A stretch of 24,108 bases of DNA from a virus (Duplodnaviria; Heunggongvirae; Uroviricota; Caudoviricetes), in the IMG/VR virus record IMGVR_UViG_3300039330_000027. The stretch is one strand, 5' to 3'. The notes beneath the pieces are model-generated. The model saw only the letters and a program-made list of their open reading frames with translations. It searched no databases and had not been told where the DNA came from. Both the position numbers and the translations under genes were made by a program. Below, piece after piece: positions 6,361 through 6,670 of the stretch; the first letter of the stretch is position 1; the number at the start of each line of letters is the position of its first letter.

Positions 6361-6436
6361 GGCCCTTTAGCTCAGTGGTGAGAGCGAGCGACTCATAATC
6401 GCCAGGTCGCTGGTTCAAATCCAGCAAGGGCCACCA
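6361..6436 (+). tRNA. ileZ: tRNA with CAT anticodon, most similar to tRNA-Ile2 (lysidine type, ileX/ileZ-like); tRNA-Met not excluded
   Basis: Manual cloverleaf: acceptor ggccctt/aagggcc, D-arm tagctcagtggtgagagc, anticodon loop cTCATAAt, T-arm gctggTTCAAATccagc, encoded CCA. Resembles the remembered E. coli ileX. Confidence 0.8.
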
Positions 6437-6437
6437 A

Positions 6438-6514
6438 CCGCCACTAGCTCATCAGGAAAGAGCGTCAACCCTTTAAGTTGAGTGTGCGAGGTTCGAGTCC
6501 CCGGTGGCGGTCCA
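6438..6514 (+). tRNA. tRNA-like gene with atypical anticodon loop CCTTTAA (probably Lys-UUU-like but with C at position 33); assignment uncertain
   Basis: Folds into a cloverleaf: acceptor ccgccac/gtggcgg, D-stem gctc/gagc, anticodon stem tcaac/gttga, T-arm cgagg-TTCGAGT-ccccg (one mismatch), discriminator T, encoded CCA. The anticodon loop lacks the usual U33. Confidence 0.5.
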
Positions 6515-6516
6515 GT

Positions 6517-6592
6517 GCCGACTTAGCTCAGTAGGTAGAGCAACTGACTTGTAATCAGTAGGTCACCAGTTCGATTCCGGCAGTCGGCACCA
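6517..6592 (+). tRNA. tRNA-Thr (anticodon TGT)
   Basis: Acceptor gccgact/agtcggc, D-arm tagctcagtaggtagagc, anticodon stem-loop actga-CTTGTAA-tcagt, T-loop TTCGATT, encoded CCA. Nearly identical to the remembered E. coli thrU. Confidence 0.85.
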
Positions 6593-6595
6593 TAT

Positions 6596-6670
6596 GCGGG
6601 CATCGTATAATGGCTATTACCTCAGCCTTCCAAGCTGATGATGCGGGTTCGATTCCCGCTGCCCGCTCCA
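6596..6670 (+). tRNA. tRNA-Gly (anticodon TCC)
   Basis: Sequence gcgggcatcgtataatggctattacctcagccTTCCaagctgatgatgcgggttcgattcccgctgcccgctcca matches the remembered E. coli glyT (tRNA-Gly UCC), with encoded CCA. Confidence 0.9.

Follow-up and report, generated by a model that had tools for sequence, protein, structure and literature searches.

We analysed a stretch of 24,108 nucleotides (nt) from a tailed-phage record of IMG/VR (IMGVR_UViG_3300039330_000027; hereafter the window), which is a lambdoid, HK97-like prophage of Escherichia coli, and focused mainly on a compact array of four tRNA genes at the head of its late region. The second gene of this array, designated here Lys*, carries a UUU anticodon on the body of a phage tRNA-Arg and has a cytidine where nearly all tRNAs have U33. 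Its origin could be traced with the help of related arrays, and its features are consistent with a tRNA-Lys that would be poorly recognised by tRNA-cleaving defence nucleases.

The genes of the window follow each other in the order hok/sok-like module, DUF968, RusA, the small Q of family PF06530, two minus-strand genes and the tRNA array, after which come the P21-type holin, DUF1327, lysozyme, Rz, terminase, portal, protease, capsid and tail genes. The coordinates are collected in Table 1.

Table 1. Features of the window, in order of position
Feature	Positions	Strand	Basis
sok antitoxin RNA	1501-1675		Rfam, 110 bits
hok/mok-like open reading frame (ORF) overlapping sok	1613-1825		
Small Q antiterminator (PF06530)	4352-4711	+	Pfam
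Inserted gene	4969-5214	-	
Inserted gene, 303-amino-acid (aa) protein	5218-6129	-	PADLOC PDC-S42, E 3e-53; NCBIfam 'LAPAL motif', E 1e-66; phrog_3243
Relic 3' end of PF06323-type Q antiterminator ORF (..FLCHLSRIDMVNALVEEIRVIF[NQVIF]ECLQH*)	6224-6334	+	in-frame match
Sigma-70-like promoter TTGCAA-17-TATTAT, 9 nt upstream of first tRNA	6323-6351	+	consensus scan
Gene 1, tRNA-Ile2, anticodon CAU, lysidine type, equal to ileZ	6361-6436	+	Rfam 72.5 bits, ARAGORN; PGAP tRNA-Ile
Gene 2, atypical tRNA(UUU), Lys*, argN-family body	6438-6514	+	Rfam 44.4 bits, ARAGORN
Stem changes of gene 2 against argN: A30 (6468), U40 (6478), A43 (6481)	6468-6481	+	alignments
C33 of gene 2, site of near-universal U33, 5' of the PrrC/RloC scissile bond	6471	+	sequence
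Anticodon UUU of gene 2	6472-6474	+	sequence
Gene 3, tRNA-Thr(UGU), host thrU copy	6517-6592	+	Rfam 67 bits, ARAGORN
Gene 4, tRNA-Gly(UCC), exact copy of host glyT	6596-6670	+	Rfam 64.9 bits, ARAGORN
Two long hairpins in the array-holin leader, with a 16-bp perfect stem in the second	6677-6722 and 6730-6802	+	z = -2.1, -5.6
P21-type holin, first late (lysis) gene downstream	6963-7178	+	Pfam PF04971, E 1.4e-35
Bor/Iss-like outer-membrane lipoprotein gene	8620-8961	-	phrog_260; iss in RefSeq
HNH endonuclease gene	9340-9789	+	
Tail assembly chaperone G-like ORF	17666-18052		
G/GT region, with the G-like ORF ending in GTT-AAA-AAA-AAG-TAG	18038-18064		
Heptamer A-AAA-AAG, dnaX type	18043-18049		
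T-like ORF	18064-18354		

Results

The tRNA array

ARAGORN and the Rfam model RF00005 (gathering score 29) agreed on the coordinates of all four plus-strand genes, which are separated by spacers of 1, 2 and 3 nt and each end in an encoded CCA. In RefSeq genomes that carry the identical locus, the Prokaryotic Genome Annotation Pipeline (PGAP) labels them tRNA-Ile, tRNA-Lys, tRNA-Thr and tRNA-Gly. A preliminary description of the window had recognised the four genes with their 1-3 nt spacing and CCA ends, the UUU anticodon, C33 and U73 of the second gene, the likeness of the others to host ileX, thrU and glyT, the late-leader position and the presence of a differently composed array, ileZ-argN-argO, at the same place in Shiga toxin (Stx) phages. 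This anatomy was right in every detail; what had been missed is that Lys* is an argN homologue (65 of 77 positions) with a switched anticodon.

Gene 1 is identical to the Stx-phage ileZ (76/76) and matches host ileX at 68 of 76 positions. Gene 3 differs from host thrU at a single position (75/76, the difference lying at 6581); the same difference was seen in three of 65 arrays of the window type, all others having exact thrU copies. Gene 4 is a perfect copy of host glyT (75/75). Between its thrU and glyT the host has tyrU and a 124-nt spacer (locus L125, 389-748; L numbers denote comparison loci), and both of these are absent from the array. The two copies have no host flanks: they are cut exactly to the mature ends and joined by TAT, which suggests that tRNA sequence alone was acquired or homogenised, by gene conversion or a cDNA-like route. 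By sequence comparison the array is a mosaic of the Stx-phage ileZ, an argN derivative and copies of host thrU and glyT.

Ancestry of the second tRNA gene

The anticodon arm of Lys* consists of a 5-bp stem (UCAAC/GUUGA) and a 7-nt loop, C32-C33-U34-U35-U36-A37-A38. U8, A14, G18-G19, the T-loop GTTCGA and a purine at position 37 are all present, with C in place of U33, a single deviation that need not exclude the gene from the tRNA family. The acceptor stem opens with C1-G72 and is followed by U73 as discriminator, and one mismatch, A51.C63, lies in the T stem. The gene passes RF00005 over model positions 1-71, and since the argN variants of Stx phages score only 43-56 bits, its lower Rfam score is a family trait. 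Minimum free energy (MFE) folding of single tRNAs was uninformative, exact copies of host tRNAs giving no cloverleaf either, and explicit cloverleaf pair counts and energies were used instead. Across the argN family 96.7% of the cloverleaf cells are paired, as against 28-54% for slid registers, with both-sided, compensatory changes at pairs 7-66 and 30-40, and the cloverleaf of Lys* lies 2.7 kcal/mol above its MFE structure (0.9 to 6.4 in the comparison tRNAs).

The same loop bears on one of the explanations offered in the preliminary description, that of a suppressor. We considered it as an ochre suppressor or recoding tRNA in which a U-turn shifted by one nucleotide would let U35-U36-A37 read UAA. 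Apart from the unusual C33 nothing favours it: the anticodon UUU is not complementary to a stop codon, the 7-nt loop sits on a normal 5-bp stem, and known suppressors keep U33. Moreover TAA ends seven of the 20 late genes and most host ribosomal genes, while the long ORFs of the phage are intact under the standard code, with no recoding of stop codons. On loop geometry and stop-codon usage this reading was rejected as extremely improbable.

Lys* is identical to argN, a tRNA-Arg with anticodon UCG, at 65 of 77 positions and to host lysT at 47 of 79. The alignment with argN extends over the whole gene, including the unusual C1-G72 pair and U73; the acceptor stem CCGCCAY, the D arm and the T arm are shared, and both genes occupy the slot directly after ileZ. 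Judged by these alignments, Lys* is not related to host tRNA-Lys and is a derivative of the Stx-phage argN. The substitutions that separate the two are concentrated in the anticodon arm (6 of 17 positions, against 6 of 60 elsewhere, p = 0.02). Lys* has the U34-U35-U36 anticodon of a tRNA-Lys, without A73 or a lysT-like body, and U35 in place of the C35 of Arg anticodons; it descends from the argN lineage and is no longer an Arg tRNA. The preliminary description had considered that the second gene might turn out as a canonical tRNA of a different fold, for example Arg-UCU, which came half true, since the tRNA nearest to it in the family reads UCU (Arg) and has the same stem.

Census of the argN family

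Pattern scans of IMG/VR, GTDB species representatives and JGI metagenomes, together with BLAST searches against phage and E. coli collections, yielded 226 ileZ-anchored arrays. More than 130 argN-family copies have the loop CUUCGAA (UCG, Arg) on the stem CCAGC/GCUGG or UCAGC/GCUGG. The stem UCAAC/GUUGA carries three kinds of loop: CUUCUAA (UCU, Arg; five copies, with A73), CUUUUAU (UUU with U33 and U38; one viral and two metagenomic copies and about 20 E. coli genomes) and CCUUUAA or UCUUUAA (UUU with C33; 80 copies). Seven copies with a disrupted anticodon arm and no anticodon are pseudogenes. C33 is fixed in all 80 copies of the CCUUUAA/UCUUUAA group. The idea that it is universal among UUU forms was dropped: it holds in the main lineage only, the U33/U38 lineage having been found by the ileZ-anchored census.

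In a neighbour-joining tree built from the positions outside the anticodon arm, the UUU forms are sister to the UCU form and both are nested within the UCG diversity, so that the switch from Arg to Lys is the derived state. The order of events, as read from this tree and the loops, is from Arg(UCG) to Arg(UCU) with the stem passing from UCAGC/GCUGG to UCAAC/GUUGA, then to UUU, and then from U33 to C. A single C35-to-U change in the UCU form gives CUUUUAA, which is the loop of host lysT. This predicted intermediate was absent from the argN family in the census; the two surviving UUU lineages are each one loop substitution away from it, at position 33 or 38. An intermediate form of the array, Ile2-Lys*-Arg(UCU), is present in phage Evi and in the PPompW prophages.

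Two related observations were made outside the E. coli arrays. The metagenome contig Ga0182024_10385765 (L237, 62-453) carries a compact array Met(CAU)-Pro(CGG)-Arg(CCG)-Gln(UUG)-Lys(UUU), in which the tRNA-Lys has, on an unrelated body, exactly the arm of the predicted intermediate (UCAAC-CUUUUAA-GUUGA). The lambdoid Yersinia phage YeP1 (L004, 1502-1579; array order X-Ile2-Gly) has a second non-U33 member of the same body family, with the loop CAUUGCC (A33, anticodon UUG, C37); it lies below the Rfam threshold and is annotated 'tRNA-Pseudo-TTG'.

Conservation and prevalence

Of 5426 complete E. coli genomes, 793 (about 15%) have the C33 form and 553 the four-gene array; the sister forms are far rarer, with about 20 and about 17 genomes. 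Among the 65 window-type arrays Lys* has segregating sites at 4 of 77 positions, and its neighbours at 4/76, 7/76 and 8/75. The array has mosaic flanks, and at position 6437, the 1-nt spacer, 40 arrays have A and 25 have G. This pattern suggests that the window-type gene is maintained.

A G3.U70 wobble in the acceptor stem was seen in argN of the Stx2a_F349 type (L003, 1628-1704) and in Lys* of PPompW (L002, 1632-1707) and Evi (L131, 1201-1277). Since G3.U70 is the classical identity determinant of alanyl-tRNA synthetase, these variants might be mischarged with alanine. Lys* of the window has G3-C70.

Codon usage

Codon frequencies (per 1000) were compared between phage late genes (6963-23959), phage early genes with morons, host ribosomal and elongation factor genes, and ordinary host genes. 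The codons of the Ile2, Thr and Gly genes are 2-10 times commoner in phage than in host genes: ATA reaches 5.9 in late and 17.9 in early and moron genes, as against 0.4 in ribosomal and elongation factor and 1.9 in ordinary host genes; the corresponding values are 11.3, 18.6, 3.8 and 5.8 for ACA, and 16.5, 13.6, 2.1 and 5.6 for GGA. Rare-codon supplementation plausibly accounts for these three genes. Lys codons (AAA and AAG together) are not enriched, with 47.6 in phage late and 46.7 in ordinary host genes, and the share of AAA among them is the same in both. In the 226 ileZ-anchored arrays Lys(UUU) is the sole exception, every other partner reading a rare codon. The preliminary description had suggested this comparison and had proposed tuning to phage codons as one explanation of the second gene; the proposal fits the other three genes, and codon supply is not supported as an explanation of Lys*.

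An ordinary extra tRNA-Lys that boosts Lys decoding for the late proteins, with no link to defence, would agree with the other members of the cassette, which match phage-enriched codons, and with the position at the start of the late transcript. We consider it improbable, because Lys frequency and the AAA/AAG ratio are those of the host, which has at least five tRNA-Lys(UUU) genes within one cluster alone, because Arg tRNAs were given up despite many rare Arg codons, and because C33 and the missing host-like loop would remain unexplained. The rare Arg codons themselves are strongly enriched in the phage (AGA and AGG 10.9, CGA and CGG 18.6 per 1000; host 1-2 and 1-9 respectively), and the window array has no Arg tRNA to read them, unlike its Stx relatives.

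A more special decoding role may also be considered, in which a variant tRNA-Lys sets the G:GT ratio of the tail assembly chaperones. From the heptamer A-AAA-AAG at the end of the G-like ORF the -1 frame runs straight into the T-like ORF, and a G/GT frameshift at this heptamer would be read by tRNA-Lys(UUU) in both ribosomal sites. The slippery heptamer and its -1 continuation are present in the sequence, and the same site was found in one related Lys*-bearing locus; the comparison covers four loci, the only ones to reach the G/GT region. In the related locus L033 the run of the slip site is one A shorter. Lys* stands also in the arrays of otherwise different prophages, and such a role has no precedent, so that we regard it as highly improbable.

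Recognition sites of tRNA-cleaving nucleases

Lys* shares its UUU anticodon with the host tRNA that is targeted by PrrC, RloC, the AriB nuclease of the PARIS system and the bacterial Schlafen nuclease RorSlfn5, whose top target is tRNA-Lys(UUU) (PMC13056530). AriB cuts the tRNAs Lys(UUU), Thr(UGU) and Asn(GUU) between C40 and A41 of U36-A-A-U-C-A41, and the change U39A abolishes cleavage (PMC12409363). At these positions Lys* reads U36-A-A-G-U-U41 and has no AriB site; gene 3 keeps UAAUCA.

The Old nuclease of P2 (the classic anti-lambda system) needs A37 and a paired CNG motif, in which it cleaves after C28 and after C40 (PMC12445682). This motif is CAG/CUG in argN and CAA/UUG in the UCU/UUU sub-lineage, the compensatory change from G30-C40 to A30-U40 having removed CNG from both strands. 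In an Old-resistant phage tRNA-Thr the differences from thrU lie at 30, 40 and 43 (PMC12445682), which are the same three stem positions as those altered in Lys*. The changes A30, U40 and A43 together deprive the gene of both the paired CNG motif and the UAAUCA motif. PrrC cuts tRNA-Lys 3' of U33, and RloC does likewise (PMC2610378); C33 sits exactly on the bond that is cut.

Genes 3 and 4 were also considered as evasion variants and rejected as such, since both are host-identical and the motifs for AriB and for Old are retained in them. In two studies, one of them PMC12445682, host thrU failed to protect from Old.

As to the function of C33, yeast tRNA-Leu(GAG) has it naturally and is unimpaired, and its change to U is nearly without effect (PMC13492127). 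The bacterial synthase of the t6A modification requires 36-UAA-38 and the shape of the D stem, both of which Lys* has, and makes no base-specific contact with U33 (PMC13276492). C33 therefore appears compatible with tRNA function.

With regard to charging, the lysyl-tRNA synthetase (LysRS) of E. coli reads mainly U35, with U34 and U36, A73 being a weaker determinant, and the arginyl enzyme depends strongly on C35. On these grounds charging of Lys* with lysine is expected, probably at an efficiency reduced by U73.

Surroundings of the array

The -35 hexamer of the putative promoter in front of the array lies within the relic of a second Q gene. The relic comprises only the last ~35 codons and matches the C-terminus of a 284-aa ORF of related loci (Pfam PF06323, E 4.5e-91), whose end lies 25 nt ahead of the array in 31 of 50 Lys*-type loci; the array thus stands where the late promoter abuts Q. 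The relic contains a 15-nt internal duplication (the ATTTTTAACCAGGTG/ATTTTTGAATGC region). A PF06323 relic together with a functional-looking PF06530 Q elsewhere in the window points to a mosaic recombination joint directly upstream of the tRNA promoter. By comparison with the related loci, the original Q is replaced in the window by a different Q plus two inserted genes. PPompW has exactly the same promoter block and an Stx2a phage nearly the same one, and with this presumed promoter before the array and the holin after it 'late leader' is a fair description of the position.

Two long hairpins follow the array. A terminator scan found no canonical terminator from the array to the holin; where these hairpins lie, the arrays of Evi, PPompW and the Stx phages carry a canonical intrinsic terminator. 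Small RNAs are encoded within 1-2 kb after the arrays of Stx-type phages and phage Evi (Rfam STnc100, together with AgvB in L007; L007 7075-7327, L021 822-1034, L131 2143-2329), and Rfam detected none of the STnc100/AgvB type in the window.

The insertion between Q and the array consists of the two minus-strand genes. The 303-aa protein matches the PADLOC candidate defence family PDC-S42 (Table 1); there was no informative structural or family match and no structural relative by sequence. A functional tie between this PDC-S42/LAPAL_fam gene and the array was rejected: of 64 Lys*-type arrays only 9 have it upstream, and of 37 Arg-type arrays none, so that it behaves as a variable moron. In the early region of the prophage the sok RNA and the hok/mok-like ORF form a hok/sok-type toxin-antitoxin module (1501-1825). 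The Bor/Iss-like gene after the lysis cassette and the HNH endonuclease gene ahead of the terminase are typical morons or accessories of such prophages.

Discussion

The observations can be joined into the following model. The cassette is a compact, promoter-proximal set of tRNAs that would head the late region of lysis and morphogenesis genes. Within it ileZ would read AUA and the thrU and glyT copies ACA and GGA, as rare-codon supplementation, whereas the argN-family member would have undergone an alloacceptor switch to UUU followed by the change of U33 to C. LysRS, reading mainly the anticodon, would charge it with lysine, and Lys* would supply during late expression a tRNA-Lys(UUU) that the nucleases directed against tRNA-Lys recognise poorly, because of a body unrelated to host tRNA-Lys, an altered 3' stem, the lost CNG motif and C33. 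That Lys* is transcribed, matured, charged with lysine, decodes with C33 and resists nucleases we infer from these features. A precedent is given by phage tRNA-Lys genes that rescue infection from PARIS and PrrC170, which host tRNA-Lys does only poorly (PMC11464382, PMC11555353). That Lys* is a nuclease-refractory supply of tRNA-Lys for late translation, beside rare-codon tRNAs, is our preferred reading, held tentatively. Its most far-reaching form, in which a phage tRNA-Arg converted to tRNA-Lys(UUU) with U33C would escape PARIS and PrrC/RloC, and possibly Schlafen and Old, all at once, is possible but doubtful. Of the four alternatives named in the preliminary description for the second gene, evasion of anticodon nucleases is the best supported, as an argument from motifs.

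Several points weigh against the evasion model. With respect to Old, change of the CNG motif alone gave no resistance (PMC12445682). Host tRNA-Lys itself has no clean CNG pair, so that the loss may matter little for a Lys tRNA, and the stem change predates the switch to UUU and was thus not selected for Lys function. Genes 3 and 4 keep the paired CNG; with both nuclease motifs in its host-identical Thr and Gly members, the four-gene array does not amount to an evasion cassette. With respect to C33, no influence of U33C on PrrC is reported in the literature searched, and U33C did not affect the unrelated gamma-toxin (PMC2275089). The acceptor end is not Lys-like: U73 and C1-G72 are retained, A73 is found in the Arg(UCU) sister and not in Lys*, and the T stem has the A51.C63 mismatch. 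The evidence for maintenance is suggestive, not conclusive, as the test of spacer against gene polymorphism gave p = 0.058, and the high identity among Lys* copies could reflect recent spread instead of selection. Finally, many copies in other lineages are degenerate: those of PPompW in enterohaemorrhagic E. coli have a 1-nt deletion in the D stem and fall below the Rfam threshold, and the type found in phage Evi reaches 37 bits, with a mismatch at 7-66; neither is annotated by PGAP.

The same points lead to the view that Lys* is a functionless passenger, a drifted argN paralogue that hitch-hikes with the Ile2, Thr and Gly genes and would fail to be matured or to be charged. In favour of this are C33, A51.C63, an acceptor end unlike that of tRNA-Lys and an Rfam score below those of the other three genes. 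Other lineages commonly have degenerate copies, those of the PPompW and L164 types being pseudogenes, as are the seven family members with a disrupted anticodon arm, and the Yersinia relative (A33/C37) was called a pseudogene. The window-type copy, however, is conserved like bona fide tRNAs, and its one A.C mismatch is shared with Stx argN, as is the low score. The cloverleaf has been kept by compensatory changes, the substitutions are clustered in the anticodon arm instead of being scattered, and two independent UUU lineages persist. We therefore judge a passenger unlikely, although it has to be taken seriously; of the pseudogene idea in the preliminary description, the part that stands is the decay of some sister copies, and it is unlikely to apply to the window copy.

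A further possibility is a non-decoding decoy, an RNA with a Lys anticodon loop that titrates tRNA-Lys nucleases or another tRNA-binding factor while itself uncut. C33 lies exactly at the PrrC/RloC scissile junction, a poorly Lys-like acceptor end would suit an RNA with no need of charging, and competition was raised in the discussion of PMC12409363. The phage tRNAs that were tested (Bas32 tRNA-Thr and tRNA-Thr6 against Old, T5 tRNA-Lys against PARIS) replace the host tRNA and do not protect it, and since the AriB recognition motif is absent from Lys*, binding of AriB is not expected. A decoy is accordingly quite improbable in our estimate.

The nearest known system is the ileZ-argN-argO array of Stx phages of the 933W type. 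It occupies the same slot downstream of Q, its promoter block and ileZ are identical, and its argN is homologous to Lys*, including C1-G72 and U73. The differences are that argN has UCG, U33 and a G-C pair 30-40 where Lys* has UUU, C33 and A-U, and that argO is replaced in the window by the copies of host thrU and glyT.

With regard to the evasion model, the closest functional parallels are the nuclease-resistant tRNA-Lys of T5 (PARIS) and SP15 (PrrC170), which have the same targeted anticodon, and the Old-resistant tRNA-Thr of phage 21, HK446 and T4-like phages. They share with Lys* arm changes at the published determinants (39-41 for AriB; 30, 40 and 43 for Old). They are diverged isoacceptors whose resistance and rescue were shown experimentally, whereas Lys*, known from its sequence, is a converted tRNA-Arg alloacceptor with C33 in the late leader of a temperate phage. 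Nuclease-evading phage tRNAs as such are known from work of 2023-2026, and the Old studies include the tRNA-Thr of the lambdoid phages 21 and HK446. In mycobacteriophage tRNAs, loop changes at or near the cleavage site have likewise been read as evasion (van den Berg et al. 2023, PMC10264068); that study concerns other host and phage groups, and treats the coliphage tRNA-Lys as an exception rescued by RNA ligase repair.

A change of amino-acid family by an anticodon point mutation, where the new synthetase reads mainly the anticodon, has also a counterpart in tRNA gene recruitment. Saks, Sampson and Abelson reportedly selected such a recruitment in the laboratory in 1998, from Arg UCU to Thr UGU; Lys* differs in that it belongs to a phage lineage found in nature, whose Arg(UCU) sister still exists, and in its extra loop and stem changes. 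C33 occurs naturally in some eukaryotic initiator tRNAs. The natural cases, among them the yeast tRNA-Leu(GAG) that keeps its function (PMC13492127), are eukaryotic, while Lys* is of phage origin; in the literature searched, no elongator tRNA of a bacterium or phage was found reported to have C33. Nor did this literature, which covers older work on Stx phages incompletely, contain an earlier description of Lys*. The origin by re-anticodoning of an Arg tRNA, the fixed C33 and the scale of occurrence in E. coli prophages appear to be new.

It should be borne in mind that phage tRNA genes have lately come to be seen as counter-measures against immunity by tRNA cleavage, chiefly in large virulent phages, and that about one in seven complete E. 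coli genomes carries Lys*, which is annotated there simply as tRNA-Lys. If the evasion model is true, temperate lambdoid phages would also field counter-defence tRNAs, and re-anticodoning of an unrelated tRNA would make a new isoacceptor in which every body determinant that a nuclease might read is changed at once. The near-universal U33 would then be dispensable under nuclease selection. With Lys*, the use of C33 would be shown for the first time in a natural elongator tRNA of a bacterium or phage; Lys* would also be the first counter-defence tRNA to have arisen by alloacceptor recruitment rather than by divergence of an isoacceptor, and it would offer a natural scaffold for nuclease-proof tRNAs in engineered phages.

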